From: a virus
Lineage: Duplodnaviria; Heunggongvirae; Uroviricota; Caudoviricetes
Virus record (IMG/VR): IMGVR_UViG_3300025292_000002
Span: 33,568-97,567 of that record
DNA length: 64,000 nucleotides
Strand: one strand, 5' to 3'
Shown here: positions 5,698 to 34,893 of the stretch, piece after piece
Layout: each line of letters begins with the position of its first letter
How positions within the stretch are numbered: the stretch's first letter is position 1
Notes under the pieces: model-generated
The model's input: only the letters and a program-made list of their open reading frames with translations
Told to the model about the DNA's origin: nothing
Databases searched by the model: none
Made by a program: the position numbers and the translations under genes

Positions 5698-6264
5698 TTA
5701 CTTGAGCGCCTCAAATCTTTCTTCAGCAAATTCTTCTTCACGAGAAGCCATTGTTTGATTGTATTCTCCAGCTATATAATAATTTCCGTATTGGTCTTGT
5801 TTGCCAGGTGTTAACGTGGCATTTCGTATTCGCATACGTTTACCGCACTGTCTACAATTGCAATAAATTTGCTGCTTAAGTATGAAATGTTTCCCTTTGT
5901 CATTGCACGATGGACAAATGTAATACAATTGGAATTTTTCATCTTTGCCTTTCTTTTCAAGCTTACCCCAATGTGTTTCAGGCTCAGCAACCGCAATAAC
6001 AGGTGGTGGCTCTTCAACTTTTGTTTCTTCAGCTTTTACTTCAACCTTTTCTTCTTGCTCAAGGTCTTTAACAGCTTCATATCCCATTTGATATAAACGT
6101 AAAGCCTCGGAATTGTTTTGATTTTCAGCATTTGAGCTAAAATAAAACATTCTCACCATGTTATCGACAAGCTGAAACTGAGCTTGTTCGTCATTGTGTT
6201 CCATTTTTGCTTCGAGCGTCTGCCCGTTTTTGTTTGTTATTTTTATCTCTATTTTTGACAACAT
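5698..6264 (-). CDS. zinc-finger protein (two CxxC pairs), start moved to internal ATG
   Basis: The track ORF overlaps the upstream gene by 125 nt. An internal ATG follows tttttaggaggtttt, and a terminator lies just upstream. Motifs CPSC...CNCRQC. Confidence 0.5.
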   Translation of the reverse strand: MLSKIEIKITNKNGQTLEAKMEHNDEQAQFQLVDNMVRMFYFSSNAENQNNSEALRLYQMGYEAVKDLEQEEKVEVKAEETKVEEPPPVIAVAEPETHWGKLEKKGKDEKFQLYYICPSCNDKGKHFILKQQIYCNCRQCGKRMRIRNATLTPGKQDQYGNYYIAGEYNQTMASREEEFAEERFEALK

Positions 6265-6303
6265 AAAACCTCCTAAAAATGTACTACATATACTATTATA
6301 CAA

Positions 6304-6330
6304 CAAAAAAATACCCTCAGACGAGGGTAA
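6304..6330 (-). terminator. rho-independent terminator
   Basis: hairpin accctc-gtct-gagggt followed by T7 on the minus strand. Confidence 0.65.
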
Positions 6331-6334
6331 TTTC

Positions 6335-7021
6335 TTACAAATCCTTAATGATACTTTGGACGTGAGCTGTCCAAGCACCTTTAATTCCTTTATGCTCTTT
6401 TTGGAATTTTTGAAACATGCCATTATTTCTGCCAGACGATAGCTTAAATTGTTTGCCAATCAATGGCGTTTTGTCAGAATTTAGGTGCATATCAATGATA
6501 GCTTCTTTTAATTCTTCCATGAATTCTTCATGTGTTCCGTATGCTAAACCAGTTCCGTGAACAGCTCCTTTTCTTTTTTTCTTTGGAGGACGATTAAATT
6601 GGTCAAGCTTGTTTTGTTGAGCAGGTTTTTCTTGAACGATTGTAGCCACTTCTTCTTTTACAACTTCTTCAACTTCTTGACGAACAATCGAATTAACACT
6701 GCTCATACCTTTGATAATTCCACGATAAGCTTGAGCCATTTCGTCACGGATTGTATCACGAACAATTTCACGAATTTCCGTTTTCATTGTTTCACGGATT
6801 GTACTTTCCATTGAATTGTTCCAAAGCTTCATAAATCCTTCGACGCTATCACGAGTTATAATCATGAAAATGTCTTCTGTTGAAAGGTTTTTTTCTTTAG
6901 CAATTTTTTCAGCTCGTTTTTCAACCGTGTTATTCTTTATCTCTGTTTGTTTGATAACATCGGTATCTCTGGCTTGTTTGCCATACTTTGCATTCCATTT
7001 GTCTAGCTGAGATTTTGTCAT
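6335..7021 (-). CDS. hypothetical protein
   Basis: 228-aa ORF. Confidence 0.55.
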   Translation of the reverse strand: MTKSQLDKWNAKYGKQARDTDVIKQTEIKNNTVEKRAEKIAKEKNLSTEDIFMIITRDSVEGFMKLWNNSMESTIRETMKTEIREIVRDTIRDEMAQAYRGIIKGMSSVNSIVRQEVEEVVKEEVATIVQEKPAQQNKLDQFNRPPKKKRKGAVHGTGLAYGTHEEFMEELKEAIIDMHLNSDKTPLIGKQFKLSSGRNNGMFQKFQKEHKGIKGAWTAHVQSIIKDL

Positions 7022-8706: not shown

Positions 8707-9015
8707 TTAAGCTAATCCTCCACCGAAATCGTCCAACGGTTCAACAACTTTTTGTTGTACGGGCACTGTTTGCTTTACCTTAGGAATATATGTTGGTTCG
8801 GGCTCAGTCAATTCAACTTCAGCTACAGAAGCTGAAAGTTCAAGTTGAGCTGGCATGTAATGTTTGTTTTTCATTTCTTCTTCAGCTATATCACGTTCAA
8901 CTAGCTGACGGATATATAACGCTATACCATCTTTGTCCTTTTTCGAGTCGAGCTTCTCACACACAGCTGGATGTTTTTTCTTGTTTATACGCAATGGATA
9001 TAGCCATATTGTCAT
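8707..9015 (-). CDS. small protein downstream of the ParM-like gene, possibly a ParR-like ribbon-helix-helix adaptor
   Basis: ATGA start/stop overlap with the upstream gene. The N-terminus shows a beta-strand followed by helix pattern. Confidence 0.4.
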   Translation of the reverse strand: MTIWLYPLRINKKKHPAVCEKLDSKKDKDGIALYIRQLVERDIAEEEMKNKHYMPAQLELSASVAEVELTEPEPTYIPKVKQTVPVQQKVVEPLDDFGGGLA

Positions 9016-9842
9016 GCAAACATCATCTCGAATCGTTTTTCATACGTCAAGAACAAGCCAACAACGTTAACATAGTAAGCTGGGTACTCAGTTAATGAGA
9101 CACTCTTCGCATTCTCATAACCAACTTCTTGTAATGCTTCGGCAATTGCTTCTGATTTGCCACCTGTCACAAGAATTTCTTTGTCATAATCAACATCAGG
9201 AAAAGCTCGAGAGAAACTATCAGCTAACGCAAAGCTTGAATGTTTGATTGTGCCACCATTCAATGTTTTTGAGCGGGCTGCATTTATTGTTCCTTCGATT
9301 AAATATAAAATATTCATTGTCATTGAGCCAGCATCAACAACAACCAAATCTCGATTGTTTGTAAATGCTAAAGCTCCTAAACCTTCAGCTGCAACTCGTA
9401 AATTTTCAATTGTGAAATTGAAAGCTTTGTTGTCAACAACACTTTCACGAGCTCCGTTTAATTTTTGTTCGAAATAATCTTTGTCTTTTTTCATAGCTGT
9501 GTACGGGCTTGTCGTTACAACGTTAAATGTTGAGATACCTGTTTCTTTATAAATTTCGTGCAAAGCTCCGACGATTCTAATAATTCCCTCGTGGTGACCT
9601 TTTCGTTTATTGCCTCGGTACATCATTTCTTCGCTAGCGTGAAATTTTGCTGCTCCTTTTCCGATGTAATAATCAAAATTTCCGTATGAAACACGCTTTA
9701 CTTCGTTGTTGAAAACCGTCTCCATTTCCTCGTATTTGTGTGTGATTGAATAAAACGTTCCCACTTTTACGTCTCCTTGGTGACGATAAACATACTTCGT
9801 TGAGAAATTACCTGGGTCAATAAGCACTGTTAGTACTGTCAT
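9012..9842 (-). CDS. actin-like ATPase of the ParM/Alp family
   Basis: phosphate-1 motif LIDPGNFSTK, phosphate-2 motif VVVDAGSMT, adenosine motif LVTGGKSEA; 276 aa. Confidence 0.65.
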   Translation of the reverse strand: MTVLTVLIDPGNFSTKYVYRHQGDVKVGTFYSITHKYEEMETVFNNEVKRVSYGNFDYYIGKGAAKFHASEEMMYRGNKRKGHHEGIIRIVGALHEIYKETGISTFNVVTTSPYTAMKKDKDYFEQKLNGARESVVDNKAFNFTIENLRVAAEGLGALAFTNNRDLVVVDAGSMTMNILYLIEGTINAARSKTLNGGTIKHSSFALADSFSRAFPDVDYDKEILVTGGKSEAIAEALQEVGYENAKSVSLTEYPAYYVNVVGLFLTYEKRFEMMFA

Positions 9843-9919
9843 AACTTTCCCACTCTCCTCATTTTTAATATGAACTTTTCAAAGAACGAAATTCGTGTTT
9901 ATCTTTTGTTGTTGTGTTA

Positions 9920-9948
9920 ATTGTACTATTTATTCGTCAATAGGTCAA
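9920..9948 (-). promoter_or_regulatory. sigma-A-type promoter (TTGACC-17-TACAAT) for the ParM-like gene
   Basis: minus-strand reading TTGACCtattgacgaataaatagTACAAT. Confidence 0.5.
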
Positions 9949-10129
9949 TATAGAAAATATATAAATCGTATATCAAATCTCGACACCACAGTTTTATCAT
10001 ATATAACATATATATACAAAATATACAAACATTTTTGTTTTCTGACATTATTTACAGATGTACAGACAACTTACTTCCTTTTATCATAAATACGAAAACA
10101 ACTCAAAAACAATACGAAAACAAAATAAA

Positions 10130-10161
10130 AACAAAAAAATACCGAGGATTGCTCCTCGGTA
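10130..10161 (-). terminator. rho-independent terminator
   Basis: hairpin ccgagga-gcaat-cctcgg followed by a T run. Confidence 0.65.
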
Positions 10162-10163
10162 GG

Positions 10164-10418
10164 TCATGTAAGATGTCTGTTTAAAATTTCAGCTAATTCG
10201 AAAGTCGAAATATTTTCTTTGTAATAAACCAGCTGAAAAGCATCAACATGTTCTATGCTCATTGTCCAATTATTGATGGCTTTGTGTTCGATTGTGAAAC
10301 GTAATCCGTTCCAAGCAAATTTTGTCGTGCATAAAACCTTGCTGAAGGCTATCACTTCTTTGACAACCTCAGCATTTTTTTCAACGGGCATATTGCAATT
10401 AATCATAATGTTTTTCAT
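10164..10418 (-). CDS. hypothetical protein
   Basis: 84-aa ORF co-transcribed with the sigma gene. Confidence 0.5.
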   Translation of the reverse strand: MKNIMINCNMPVEKNAEVVKEVIAFSKVLCTTKFAWNGLRFTIEHKAINNWTMSIEHVDAFQLVYYKENISTFELAEILNRHLT

Positions 10419-11027: not shown

Positions 11028-11157
11028 TTTAAAAGCCCCTTTTCAATTTGTTTTTTTAGAATAATGTTTTGGACAGAACGTAAACAGTTGTAAAATTTCA
11101 AATTGTCTGAATTTTCCGTCAACTTAGCTCGTGTATGTGAGGTCTTTATTACATGTG

Positions 11158-11259
11158 TGTCGAACACAATTCTGAAAATTTCGACTTTTTTCGACGTTTT
11201 CTGACACCATTCGACAAAAGTTTCACAAAAGCGTAGTGTTTGGACGCAATTTTCGACAA
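11158..11259. promoter_or_regulatory. phased array of Spo0A-box-like (TGTCGAA) repeats in the sigma-factor leader
   Basis: exact TGTCGAA at 11158-11164 (+), and on the minus strand at 11210-11216 and 11253-11259; 6-of-7 matches at about 11180, 11191 and 11199; spacing about 10-11 bp. Confidence 0.5.
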
Positions 11260-11493
11260 AATATTTGATTATGTTACAACTTTGTTACACAATGTTACAG
11301 TACAAATTTCTTTGTAAGAACTTCGTTGTCCCTTTTCACTTTCTCAATATATCATGGTTGGAAACTTTCGTAAAGTGATATTTACTTTACGGGAATAATG
11401 ACGGACAGTTGCTCGAGTGAGCAACTCCGTATTATCAATGTTTCCAACATGATAAACTTTTTTTATTTTTTTTCAAAGACCTGATGACCTGGT

Positions 11494-11700
11494 TTATTCA
11501 ATTACTTGCCAATCGTCACGACAGATAAAACGGAAAGTGTAATCTACATTGCTGGTTTCTCTAATATCGAGAACTCCTCCTTGTCGTAATTGAATCATGA
11601 TTGTTTGTCGGTGGAAATCCCAGTACCAATATCCGCCCCATTCAGGCAATTTAATTTTTTCGCCTCGTCGCATCAATTTATATGCTTCTTCAAATCTCAT
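11494..11700 (-). CDS. small Trp-rich hypothetical protein
   Basis: 68-aa ORF behind a family promoter. Confidence 0.5.
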   Translation of the reverse strand: MRFEEAYKLMRRGEKIKLPEWGGYWYWDFHRQTIMIQLRQGGVLDIRETSNVDYTFRFICRDDWQVIE

Positions 11701-11731: not shown

Positions 11732-11761
11732 TATTGTATTGTGTTAATTCCGTTTGTAAGA
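11732..11761 (-). promoter_or_regulatory. conserved phage promoter module (family copy)
   Basis: tattgtattgt-N12-tgtaaga. Confidence 0.55.
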
Positions 11762-33162: not shown

Positions 33163-34893
33163 CTAGAAAACAATATTTTCTATTGTAATTTCTTCTGCAA
33201 AAGCTTCTTCATTTGAAAATTCAACTGCTTCTAAAACCACTTGAGTGGCTTCTCTTCCCAGCCAATTGTTGATTGTCGGACGACCTATGAAATCTAATCT
33301 CAGCTGAGGAGCAAACCCAGCTGTGAATTTGTCGGCTGTTTCTTGAGAAGCTCCGTACATGACAAATTCTACATCGTCAACATAAAACGTCAGCATCGAA
33401 CCTTTTTGTTTAATGTTTTTCTTTTCAACATCAATTCCGACGTATGCAAACAATGAATCATGAACTTTGCCACCGAAAATAAATTTGTTTCTGTCGAGCT
33501 CATGAATGATTTCTTTATCAACTACGCCACGAGAAACATAATCGACCTCGTGAATAAATTCTCGAGCTTCAACTTTCTTTCGGAATGTTTTAAATAAATC
33601 AAATTTTTCTTTATCAATTTCAATACCGAAAGCTTGGTCATGACCTTGTGCAAATTCTACAAGACCTGTATCTTGGCACCAATCTTTAAAGCTGTCCATT
33701 GTTGGGTCATATCCACGACCTGAACCAGAAAATTTGCCATCTCGTTCACGCAAAATCAATACTGGTTTTTGAAGCTTGTTAACCATTTTTGTTGCAATTA
33801 ACCCTGTTAATGAAGCATGATTATCGTTAATTTTGCCAACACCAATTGCAATTCCGCCATCGCTGACGATATCTTCTTCAATTTGAGCTACTGCTTTCTT
33901 AACAGCTGTATCTTGACGAGTTTTACATTTAATAGCTATATCAACTGCCATTTGCTGTAAATTAAGGTTGACTTGGATTTTGTCAAATTTCTTTGTTTCT
34001 TTATTCTTTTTACGCTTTTCAACGGTGAAAATTTCTGGGTTAATATCGTTTAAAGCTCGGAATAAAATTTCTTTTTCTTCCATTGAGCCAATACGAATTA
34101 CAGCGTTTATCATCGGAATAACAGAAAATGACAAATCTTTAGGAACAGGTTGGAAAATGTCTTTGATTTTTAAAGCTTCTTTGATGAACTTGTTTTCCAT
34201 ATTTTTGATTCCATCAAATACTAAATTACGAACTTCATTTTCAGAGATGTCTGAAGCATCTGAAATTTGTCCTAAAGCCACTAAATCTTTCAATTTTTCG
34301 GTGCGATTTGTGTTTAAAGCTTTATCCATCGCTTGACAGAATTTGTGTACTACGCCAACACCAACTAAATTAGTGTTCACATTTTCGCTAATTTGATTGT
34401 TGATGATAATTCCGCTCTCTGGCATTTCTTCAACTAAATGGTGGTCAAGCACAATTACTTCAACGCCCATACCATATAAAATATCAAGTTCTCTGGCATC
34501 GTTTGAAGCTGCATCTGGGATGATTATTAACTCATAATTTTTTTCAGAAATTCTTTCCATAATATCTTCGGTCAAACCGTGAGCTTTTTTATCATGAATG
34601 ATAAAATCAATATTGTAAAGTGGGTCAATTGATTTTAAATATTGATATATATATGAAGCGCTTAAGAATCCGTCAGCATCTGAATCGACCAAAACAGCCA
34701 TTTTGCTGTACGTCATTAAATGTGCTGCAAGAACTTGTATTCCTTGAACCATATTTTTGAAAGCAAATGGGTTTGTGTCGGAAGAATTATCAGGATTTAA
34801 AAACAAATGAATGTTTTCAATACCTCGATTGTTTAAAATTGTTCTAACAATATCTCCGTTGTATTCACCAATTTGTTTGTATTTTAATGTCAT
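33163..34893 (-). CDS. DHH-family phosphoesterase (RecJ-like ssDNA exonuclease)
   Basis: DHH motifs DSDADGF, VLDHH; DHHA1-like C-terminus; 576 aa. Confidence 0.75.
   Translation of the reverse strand: MTLKYKQIGEYNGDIVRTILNNRGIENIHLFLNPDNSSDTNPFAFKNMVQGIQVLAAHLMTYSKMAVLVDSDADGFLSASYIYQYLKSIDPLYNIDFIIHDKKAHGLTEDIMERISEKNYELIIIPDAASNDARELDILYGMGVEVIVLDHHLVEEMPESGIIINNQISENVNTNLVGVGVVHKFCQAMDKALNTNRTEKLKDLVALGQISDASDISENEVRNLVFDGIKNMENKFIKEALKIKDIFQPVPKDLSFSVIPMINAVIRIGSMEEKEILFRALNDINPEIFTVEKRKKNKETKKFDKIQVNLNLQQMAVDIAIKCKTRQDTAVKKAVAQIEEDIVSDGGIAIGVGKINDNHASLTGLIATKMVNKLQKPVLILRERDGKFSGSGRGYDPTMDSFKDWCQDTGLVEFAQGHDQAFGIEIDKEKFDLFKTFRKKVEAREFIHEVDYVSRGVVDKEIIHELDRNKFIFGGKVHDSLFAYVGIDVEKKNIKQKGSMLTFYVDDVEFVMYGASQETADKFTAGFAPQLRLDFIGRPTINNWLGREATQVVLEAVEFSNEEAFAEEITIENIVF

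Follow-up and report, generated by a model that had tools for sequence, protein, structure and literature searches.

Which host signal is read by the long non-coding leader in front of a phage sigma-factor gene, and why should this leader carry repeats that resemble the binding sites of Spo0A, which governs sporulation as its master regulator? The question arises from a stretch of 64,000 nucleotides of a tailed phage (IMG/VR record IMGVR_UViG_3300025292_000002, positions 33,568 to 97,567), hereafter called the window, in which all genes lie on the minus strand. The leader of the sigma gene comprises 466 bp and is bounded by a gene for a 68-amino-acid (aa) protein that ends at 11494. An original prediction, made from the letters of the window, had read the repeats as Spo0A boxes (0A boxes). 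Judging from the comparison described here, phosphorylated host Spo0A (Spo0A~P) probably binds between an upstream SigA-type promoter and the sigma gene and blocks the expression of the sigma factor. Such an arrangement suggests that, ahead of committing itself to replication, the phage tests its host for imminent sporulation.

Phased 0A-box-like repeats in the sigma leader

The leader contains three exact copies of TGTCGAA, which is the core of the 0A box, and three copies that match at six of seven positions (Table 1). A/T flanks, which are typical of 0A boxes (PMC3485338), are seen here on the copy TTTTGTCGAAAAT. The core of the array consists of five head-to-tail units, which read TGTCGAAtgg TGTCAGAaaa CGTCGAAaaa AGTCGAAatt TTCAGAA on the gene strand and are separated by 3-bp spacers. 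The same geometry, a consensus box with an imperfect box 3 bp away, forms the unit of the Spo0A footprint in the phages phi29 and Nf (PMC2731898), and both the motif and the spacing thus speak for Spo0A as the candidate binder. The three exact boxes, one on the plus strand and two on the gene strand, had been predicted correctly, as had the positions of those at 11158 and 11210, and the third starts at 11252 rather than at 11253. Three boxes with a single mismatch had been placed between the exact ones; three do exist, but only those at 11180 and 11190 lie there, and the one at 11069 is about 90 bp away. Likewise, the proposed spacing of about 10-11 bp on one face of the DNA became an exact 10-bp period over five units, from which the box at 11069 is excluded. 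Degenerate proximal boxes are present in relatives too.

Sigma homologs number 22 in the public data, mostly on metagenomic contigs, and the identical protein occurs on contigs of up to 97.6 kb. Seven independent relatives (L011, L012, L013, L018, L020, L023 and L024), with a sigma identity of 54-71%, were compared with the window. A leader of 420-620 bp is kept in all seven; it aligns poorly, with about 50% identity, and the sole invariant block in the aligned leaders is TGTCGA followed by TTGTC. Exact boxes occur 15 times in 3,522 bp of leader and 5 times in 34,807 bp of flanking DNA, which is a 30-fold enrichment (P=1.7e-17), and 13 of the 15 leader boxes have the orientation of the gene strand. 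The array itself is kept in six of the seven relatives, with turnover of individual boxes: there are five phased units in L013 and L018, two plus three in L020, three in L012, three in L024 (TGCCGAA among them) and a degenerate remnant with one exact box in L011, while L023 has no phased units. The identity of the exact unit varies from phage to phage, which points to selection on binding rather than to shared descent. Judged by this pattern, the enrichment is the phylogenetic footprint of a putative binding-site array. Moreover, distant relatives, including the VPE25-like phages of Enterococcus, whose hosts do not sporulate, have neither the long leader nor the boxes, as would be expected if the boxes served Spo0A.

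Might the array be a chance cluster, or an element of the 5' untranslated region (UTR) that acts as RNA and has no DNA-binding role? The 0A boxes were scored by mismatch counts and by phased scores in a 10-bp register. Over the whole window TGTCGAA is not enriched (10 observed, 10.1 expected), and when boxes are counted loosely, with up to one mismatch allowed, the result by itself is not significant (P=0.16), both of which would fit a chance origin. However, three exact boxes within 120 bp or less were found in only 2 of 300 second-order Markov simulations, and the phased scores over three, four and five units (18/21, 24/28 and 28/35), which are the maxima of the window and belong to its single phased array, were reached in none of the 300. 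The comparison with background composition that had been proposed as a check gave a split answer, in which the phased score exceeded every simulation and the loose count did not stand out. RNA of the leader has an unusual amount of structure (z=-4.0 over its full length; z=-9.2 and -44 kcal/mol for the 130-nt segment 11334..11463), and the strand bias of the boxes is also compatible with an RNA motif. Yet the strong structure lies upstream of the array and outside it, no Rfam family matched, the inverted copies are conserved like the others, and the enrichment in independent relatives (P about 1e-17) would be hard to reconcile with chance. We regard a chance cluster or a pure RNA element as scarcely credible; pure chance in particular is already close to refuted. 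A riboswitch or other known RNA was rejected on the same grounds, as there was no Rfam match at E<=1 and the strong fold is upstream of the array. Two small open reading frames (ORFs) over the array (36 and 47 aa) were rejected as well, because they have no ribosome-binding site and a 10-bp repeat is unable to hold a reading frame.

With regard to the generality of the motif, 120 IMG/VR stretches with TGTCGAA-N3-TGTCGAA were sampled and the reversed motif was used as a control. Among the matches listed, 51 of 124 tandem-box matches and 10 of 125 control matches were on contigs with less than 33% GC. In low-GC contigs, again among the matches listed, 56% of the tandem boxes were outside ORFs, as compared to 29% of the control and 12% of the background; tandem 0A boxes in low-GC viral contigs are thus mostly intergenic. 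None of the tandem-box matches listed in IMG/VR was near a homolog of the sigma factor or of the partition proteins AlfA and AlfB described below. In two of the IMG/VR contigs (L079 and L070, 31-32% GC), TGTCGAA is arrayed in phase, with six units in the former and four in the latter, and these arrays are unrelated to sigma/AlfA.

The SigN-type sigma factor, its locus and its leader

By homology, the window sigma is a divergent protein of the extracytoplasmic function (ECF)-like type with the two domains sigma2 and sigma4, related to SigN (ZpdN) of pBS32 (38% identity over 196/199 aa, E 4e-37). Pfam Sigma70_r2 matches marginally, the PHROG annotation is sigma factor, the best NCBIfam match is the generic sigma70-ECF model, below its cutoff, and the best PDB match has an E of 1.7e-4. 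Since the Sigma70_r2 match is marginal and the NCBIfam match generic, a SigF/SigG/SigE-like sporulation sigma was rejected; the expectation of a sporulation-type (SigF/SigG-like) or SPO1 gp28-like factor has thus been replaced by an ECF-like SigN/ZpdN homolog. The gene order is conserved, too. Downstream of PolIII alpha, the window, pBS32 and Geobacillus phage GR1 share the long leader, sigN, alfA, alfB and then thymidine kinase, and in pBS32 the order is PolIII alpha, dUTPase, thioredoxin, guanylate kinase, RusA, a 513-bp leader, sigma, alfA, alfB and thymidine kinase. The window also encodes GyrA/GyrB, a class Ib ribonucleotide reductase, DnaB, a primase, RecJ, thymidylate synthase and ligases. 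We predict that it represents the module for replication and nucleotide metabolism in a phage of about 97 kb that belongs to the Bacillales phage lineage of GR1 and pBS32; GR1 is the nearest cultured relative (PolIII 57.6% identity, sigma 40%).

Several homologies support a spore-forming host. The best named homologs of NrdE are from endospore-forming genera of the Bacillales (Paenibacillus, Bacillus, Brevibacillus or Thermoactinomyces) or from Bacillus phages, and the plasmid matches of alfA are all from Bacillus (41/41), most of those listed being the 84-kb plasmid pBS32 (NCIB 3610) or near-identical plasmids of 83-84 kb. A 57%-identical sigma is encoded in the chromosome of Lysinibacillus sp. 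TE18511 (L014, 10001..10597), and the contig in question has a spore-coat gene as well; the sigma gene belongs to a small integrase-bearing island beside clpP and has no leader, boxes or alfAB. Furthermore, the distant relatives L021 and L022 (39% identity; about 71-96 kb) have a gene for a small acid-soluble spore protein (5989..6351) a few genes downstream of sigma. No match was obtained when the locus was compared by megablast with 50,697 phage records, when viral contigs were scanned for the sigma with a single protein, or when genome and metagenome contigs were scanned for it with a profile. The AlfA profile had no match in genome contigs and found three GR1-like loci in metagenome contigs.

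In pBS32, sigN is transcribed from three promoters, the strong SigA-type PsigN1, which is repressed by LexA, the weak PsigN2 and the SigN-dependent PsigN3 (Burton et al. 2019, PMC6751061). Moreover, AbrB represses an antisense promoter downstream of sigN, and for this reason the feedback of SigN fails outside exponential growth (Burton et al. 2023, PMC10601692). Because AbrB is a classical target of Spo0A repression, pBS32 SigN is indirectly tied to the Spo0A pathway, and by analogy the AbrB-dependent shut-off of SigN outside exponential phase may be regarded as a functional precedent for the control predicted here (PMC10601692). The homologous leader is a hub for host regulators, as indicated by the experimentally demonstrated LexA repression of PsigN1 (PMC6751061). 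Perfect LexA boxes (GAAC-N4-GTTC) and no 0A boxes are present in the leaders of pBS32 (L268 3474..3485), L026 and L027, and the L024 leader combines two overlapping LexA boxes with a 0A array. In the window leader there is no GAAC-N4-GTTC with one mismatch or less, and most of the clade has 0A arrays and no LexA box. Since the LexA and 0A content differs between clades, the leader can be seen as a socket for host regulators, whose inputs appear to have been swapped or combined between clades. Thus, with an array in six of seven relatives, a 7+3-bp tandem geometry and a homologous leader that is a landing pad for LexA, the reading of the repeats as putative 0A boxes has been strengthened. The boxes were also considered as LexA half-sites and rejected, as C rarely follows TGTCGAA and the window leader has no Cheo box.

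The predicted start of transcription is far upstream of the sigma gene. The extended -10 element of the P1-like promoter ('TGATATAWT') is conserved in the six relatives scanned, L024, GR1 and pBS32, and since the extended -10 of pBS32 adjoins the LexA box, we infer that P1 corresponds to PsigN1. The 5' UTR from P1 would be about 311 nt long, as compared to about 324 nt in pBS32, and the array would extend from about +80 to +160; in the relatives it begins 80-115 nt downstream. Apart from the main array, four relatives have one inverted 0A-like box each, roughly 20-45 nt downstream of the P1 -10 element: L024 (exact, at -271 relative to the sigma start codon), L012 (-253), L013 (-329) and L018 (-371), the latter three with six of seven matches. 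As there is no terminator-like site in between, transcripts from the canonical phage promoter at 11760 would also enter the leader and cross the array. The structured element in front of the array is possibly an insulator or processing element for this read-through. Strong structure is found at the same place in GR1 (z=-7.2), L018, L011 and L024 and is not found in L012, L013 and L023. The perfect 7-bp hairpin of the original prediction is real (11408..11425, with a 4-nt loop) and sits inside this larger element, and the three TGTTACA direct repeats are equally present. The latter have counterparts in L013 (ATTACAG, twice) and L024 (ATTACAT, twice), with 11-bp spacing and about 40-60 bp upstream of the array, and are a second conserved direct-repeat element. 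They also resemble the canonical -35 element CTTACA.

The SigN regulon of pBS32 comprises nucleotide-metabolism and replication genes with promoters of the type TTTACGTTT...AGATATAA (PMC6751061). A scan of the window with this consensus yielded only the P1 site and a few weak matches, and as a regulon finder it was dropped in favour of a de novo k-mer search, which identified the class CCTTACA...TCAATACAAT. Most operons of the window are preceded by a promoter of the form (t)cCTTACA-N13-tCAATACAATAgt, of which about 30 near-identical copies are present, and 21 of 23 CCTTAC copies are intergenic. The -35 element, the spacing and the -10 element parallel the SigN consensus (CTTACA/TTTACG, 14 nt, AATACAA/GATATAA), and by this likeness the class is probably the regulon of the window sigma. 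The sigma gene itself does not have such a promoter. Upstream of it, TTTACG-N15-GATATA (11374..11348) was compared with the SigN promoter TTTACGTTT-N11-AGATATAA, and the SigN-type element TTTACGTTC (about 11083) lacks a matching -10; a SigN-dependent autoregulatory promoter was not identified at the window sigma gene.

The leader had also been taken for the longest non-coding stretch of the window, which it is not: a stretch of 695 bp (63112..63806) is longer and has no minus-strand ORF of 45 aa or more, with ORFs of only 25-49 aa on either strand. This stretch lacks ORFs of at least 50 aa, has about 29% GC and zero GC skew, contains TTCCTATAT-type repeats (four or five, around 63300..63400) and resembles an origin or early control region. 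A replication origin at the array was rejected, as there is no inflection of the GC skew at 11 kb and a better iteron region is present at 63.1-63.8 kb.

Table 1. Features of the sigma locus and the surrounding window (positions within the 64,000-nt window)
Feature	Position	Strand	Remarks
Core array, five head-to-tail 0A-box-like units	11170..11216 (read 11216->11170)	-	exact 10-bp period
First array unit, exact TGTCGAA	11210..11216	-	exact heptamer
Inverted 0A box, exact TGTCGAA	11158..11164	+	promoter-distal array end, just downstream of array; counterpart in L013
Isolated consensus box, extended flanks TTTTGTCGAAAAT	11252..11258	-	42 bp (four helical turns) upstream of array
6/7 boxes	11180 and 11190	-	mismatch scan
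Proximal 6/7 box TGTCCAA	11069..11075	-	48 nt 5' of start codon
Sigma-factor gene, 196 aa	10437..11027	-	pBS32 SigN (ZpdN) homolog
P1-like promoter TTTACG-17-TG-n-TATATT	11374..11346	-	extended -10
Canonical phage promoter CTTACA-16-TACAAT	11733..11760	-	upstream of 68-aa gene
TGTAACA direct repeats, three (TGTTACA on plus strand)	11272..11299 (starts 11272, 11283, 11293)	-	11/10-bp spacing; between P1 and boxes
Strongly structured element	11334..11463	-	inverted repeat TATCATGTTGGAAAC / GTTTCCAACCATGATA around 7-bp hairpin; overlaps P1
Conserved 84-aa gene	10164..10418	-	directly downstream of sigma; 82-91 aa in phage relatives
Terminator-like hairpin	10140..10161		after 84-aa gene
Single 6/7 box TGTCGAG	9979..9985	-	3 bp upstream of alfA -35 (TTGATA, 9976..9971)
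AlfA-type actin-like partition ATPase	9012..9842	-	Pfam ALP_N; profile match to B. subtilis AlfA (PDB 6bqw), E 4.5e-112, full length
AlfB-like adaptor, 102 aa	8707..9015	-	30% identity to pBS32 AlfB, E 5e-11
(t)cCTTACA-N13-tCAATACAATAgt promoters, examples	63176, 61811, 58807, 57298, 55545, 51875, 47267, 36048	-
(t)cCTTACA-N13-tCAATACAATAgt promoters, further examples	29770, 25866, 21179, 16914, 11760, 8417, 4041, 2066	-

Partition proteins and other candidate users of the array

Downstream of the sigma gene, the window, although from a phage of virulent type, encodes an actin-like partition system, which the original prediction had not mentioned. It consists of AlfA and an AlfB-like adaptor, whose N-terminal segment is conserved and DNA-binding-like and whose C-terminal tail reads DFGGGLA. 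AlfA has been described as segregating its plasmid during growth and sporulation. Because of the alfAB genes, the array could be their centromere (parN/parC-like), which is a serious explanation and the main rival to Spo0A: AlfB dimers would coat the repeats and link the DNA to AlfA filaments, and the likeness to 0A boxes would be coincidental. Head-to-tail repeats at the helical period are typical of type II centromeres (ParR/parC), and the array does consist of direct repeats phased with the helix. The alpS site of a phage is also built from a short repeated motif (PMC5539076). Moreover, the alfA carriers (6/6 relatives) have two to three exact boxes, whereas L011 and L023, which lack alfAB, have one and none, respectively. 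As the array of these two relatives is degenerate or missing, it could serve the partition system; however, the joint loss of array and alfAB is equally expected if both form one spore-entrapment module. The alfA promoter has a TGTCGA(N) box as well, at the place expected for the binding of an autoregulating adaptor and inside a block of roughly 60 bp that is conserved in six relatives (TGTCGAnATTTGATATACGATTTATATA...CTATATTGACC).

The position of the array speaks against a centromere. It is 1.3 kb away from alfA, beyond the sigma gene, the 84-aa gene and the terminator-like hairpin, and not in the promoter region of the actin-adaptor operon. Indeed, alfA has an upstream region of its own (9843..10163, 321 bp; 200-360 bp across loci) with its own conserved block and repeats, and the transcribed leader of another gene would be an odd site for a segrosome. 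A perfect 18-bp palindrome (TTGAATATTAATATTCAA) is found upstream of alfA in L013, L018, L020 and L024 and is not present in the window. In pBS32, three TTATTTAA-type repeats, which we take to be parN, are located directly upstream of the alfA promoter. Similarly, alpS is part of the promoter region of its own operon (PMC5539076). Furthermore, pBS32 and the GR1-like phages have AlfA/AlfB and a long sigN leader and yet no TGTCGAA boxes, and in the clade the adaptors are only 38-45% identical and vary in the putative DNA-reading residue (R/Q/T), whereas the motif is constant. Finally, an exact match to a famous 7-mer together with the Spo0A-specific 3-bp spacing is unlikely to have arisen by chance. 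On balance, we consider it unlikely that the array is a centromere.

Spo0A could also bind the array with the opposite outcome, as an activator of a gene-proximal promoter analogous to PsigN2 or PsigN3, so that the sigma factor would be induced or switched to another promoter as Spo0A~P rises, as at spo0A Ps, spoIIG and spoIIE. In pBS32, two promoters are located about 110 nt or less from the start codon, in addition to the far-upstream PsigN1 (PMC6751061), and in the window a -35-like TTGACG (11122) and the SigN-type TTTACGTTC element are downstream of the array. Moreover, the boxes between the two promoters of spo0A repress one of them and can activate the other (PMC12090719). However, neither TTGACG nor TTTACGTTC is followed by a convincing -10 element, and the relatives compared share no conserved sequence downstream of the array. 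In addition, phi29, Nf and the AbrB circuit of pBS32 all shut the programme off in post-exponential cells, and arrays of several consensus units suggest occupancy with high affinity and a low threshold, which would be typical of repressed targets. Activation therefore strikes us as quite improbable.

A last alternative is that another protein binds the TGTCGAA-like direct repeats, either a phage-encoded one or a host response regulator other than Spo0A. Direct repeats with a period of 10-11 bp are the usual target of winged-helix response regulators; the second repeat family (TGTAACA), for which no binder has been assigned, adjoins the array, and many small conserved ORFs nearby have no assigned function. 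On the other hand, we know of no other regulator with a TGTCGAA consensus, a single array in 64 kb is unlike the operators of phage repressors, and L023 has the conserved 84-aa gene next to sigma but no boxes. We thus attach little weight to a different binder, which would be very unlikely. The site AATTTTCAGAATTGT (11166..11180, minus strand) agrees at 12 of 15 positions with AATTTTCWGAAAATT, which we take to be the consensus of the CodY box, and this CodY-like site overlaps the last array unit.

Predicted Spo0A control and its known counterparts

Taking the motif, its phasing and conservation, the position of the promoter and the homology of sigN-alfAB as the observed basis, a control circuit can be proposed in which Spo0A is the presumed binder, repression the presumed effect and the CCTTACA...TCAATACAAT class the presumed regulon. 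Host RNA polymerase with SigA would start at P1, and read-through would probably also come from the 11760 promoter. About 80 nt further on, the path of transcription would meet the phased array. As Spo0A~P rises at the transition to stationary phase and sporulation, its dimers would occupy the 7+3-bp tandem boxes in a cooperative manner, along a single face of the helix. The occupied array would then act as a roadblock or repressor for transcripts from P1 and from read-through, and the sigma factor would not be made. Because of its homology to pBS32 SigN, the sigma factor probably drives the about 30 promoters of the replication genes. If these promoters are its regulon, blocking the sigma would stall them and with them the lytic programme in cells committed to sporulation. 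The order of SigA promoter, downstream 0A boxes and gene is the roadblock design that has been proposed for spo0A Pv and abrB (PMC12090719).

Several observations weigh against repression by Spo0A. The array is degenerate in L011 and absent in L023, neither of which has alfA/alfB, and GR1 has no boxes although its host is a spore former. The distance from the predicted transcription start to the first boxes, about 80 nt in the downstream direction, is larger than at abrB, where they lie at +11 to +29. There may be a promoter downstream of the array, in which case Spo0A could activate. Moreover, it is the 5' TGTC half that is best conserved in the degenerate units (16 units, a small sample), and the classical Spo0A consensus tolerates variation at position 3.

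A wider view, which we put forward tentatively and consider possible but doubtful, is that the sigN leader is a swappable socket, occupied by LexA in pBS32 and some GR1-like phages, by Spo0A in this clade and by both in L024, and that the array and alfAB together form a spore-entrapment module. Spo0A~P would block the master sigma and stall the expression of the replication genes, AlfA/AlfB would be maintained or increased through a 0A-like box in the alfA promoter, at -40, and the silent genome of a large virulent phage would be partitioned into the forespore. Such a module would explain why the array and alfAB were lost together.

What would Spo0A control of the sigma gene mean? Silencing of a lytic phage by Spo0A has so far been established for the small phi29 family. 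If the prediction is true, a large lineage of Bacillales phages, which is widespread, has independently come to use this host signal, and does so at one choke point, namely the gene that encodes the phage's own sigma factor of the SigN type. Why B. subtilis carries a sigma factor that is toxic, activates itself and is antagonised outside exponential growth is a question which the published work on SigN does not answer (PMC10601692). By the comparison, SigN takes the place of master regulator in a phage replication module, and its leader gathers host inputs, SOS in some members and sporulation in others.

Among the known systems, the type II centromeres (R1 parC/ParR, pLS32/pBS32 parN/AlfB and CGP3 alpS/AlpA) resemble the locus in having short direct repeats phased with the helix and a nearby actin-like ATPase with its adaptor, and among the relatives the array co-occurs with alfAB. 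However, known centromeres such as alpS are in the promoter region of the actin operon itself, whereas here the repeats precede another gene, at 1.3 kb from alfA and with a terminator in between, and the homologous AlfAB systems of pBS32 and GR1 do without the TGTCGAA motif. At spo0A Pv/Ps and abrB, 0A boxes are likewise downstream of a SigA promoter (at spo0A between two promoters) and act cooperatively as a roadblock (PMC12090719). There, two to four irregularly spaced boxes are near the start, whereas the window has five strictly phased units and flanking single boxes about 80 nt downstream.

The sigN locus of pBS32 shares with the window the homologous sigma (38%), the gene order (PolIII...RusA or equivalents, leader, sigma, alfA-alfB, thymidine kinase) and a far-upstream SigA-type promoter with an extended -10 and a 5' UTR of about 300 nt. 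In pBS32, too, a host regulator acts on the leader and expression is antagonised outside exponential growth. In contrast, the input at P1 is LexA there, via one perfect GAAC-N4-GTTC box, while the window has a direct 0A array instead of a LexA box, and stationary-phase control in pBS32 is indirect, with AbrB repressing the antisense promoter.

The likeness to phi29 and Nf lies in the host Spo0A motif TGTCGAA, which is present in the genome of a lytic phage as a consensus and an imperfect box 3 bp apart (PMC2731898), and in the predicted outcome, in which the lytic programme would be suppressed in cells that enter sporulation. Furthermore, a segregation function is encoded or exploited in both cases, parS/Spo0J there and AlfA/AlfB here (PMC2731898; PMC12991052). 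The lineages are unrelated, as phi29 is a 19-kb podovirus with protein-primed replication and the phage described here has about 97 kb and replication proteins of the PolIII/DnaB type. In phi29, several promoters, both early and late, and also the origins carry boxes, whereas here a single array of three to five units is located in the transcribed leader of a phage sigma gene. Thus, with Spo0A binding as a prediction, the locus would represent phi29-type Spo0A control placed on a master sigma factor of the SigN family.

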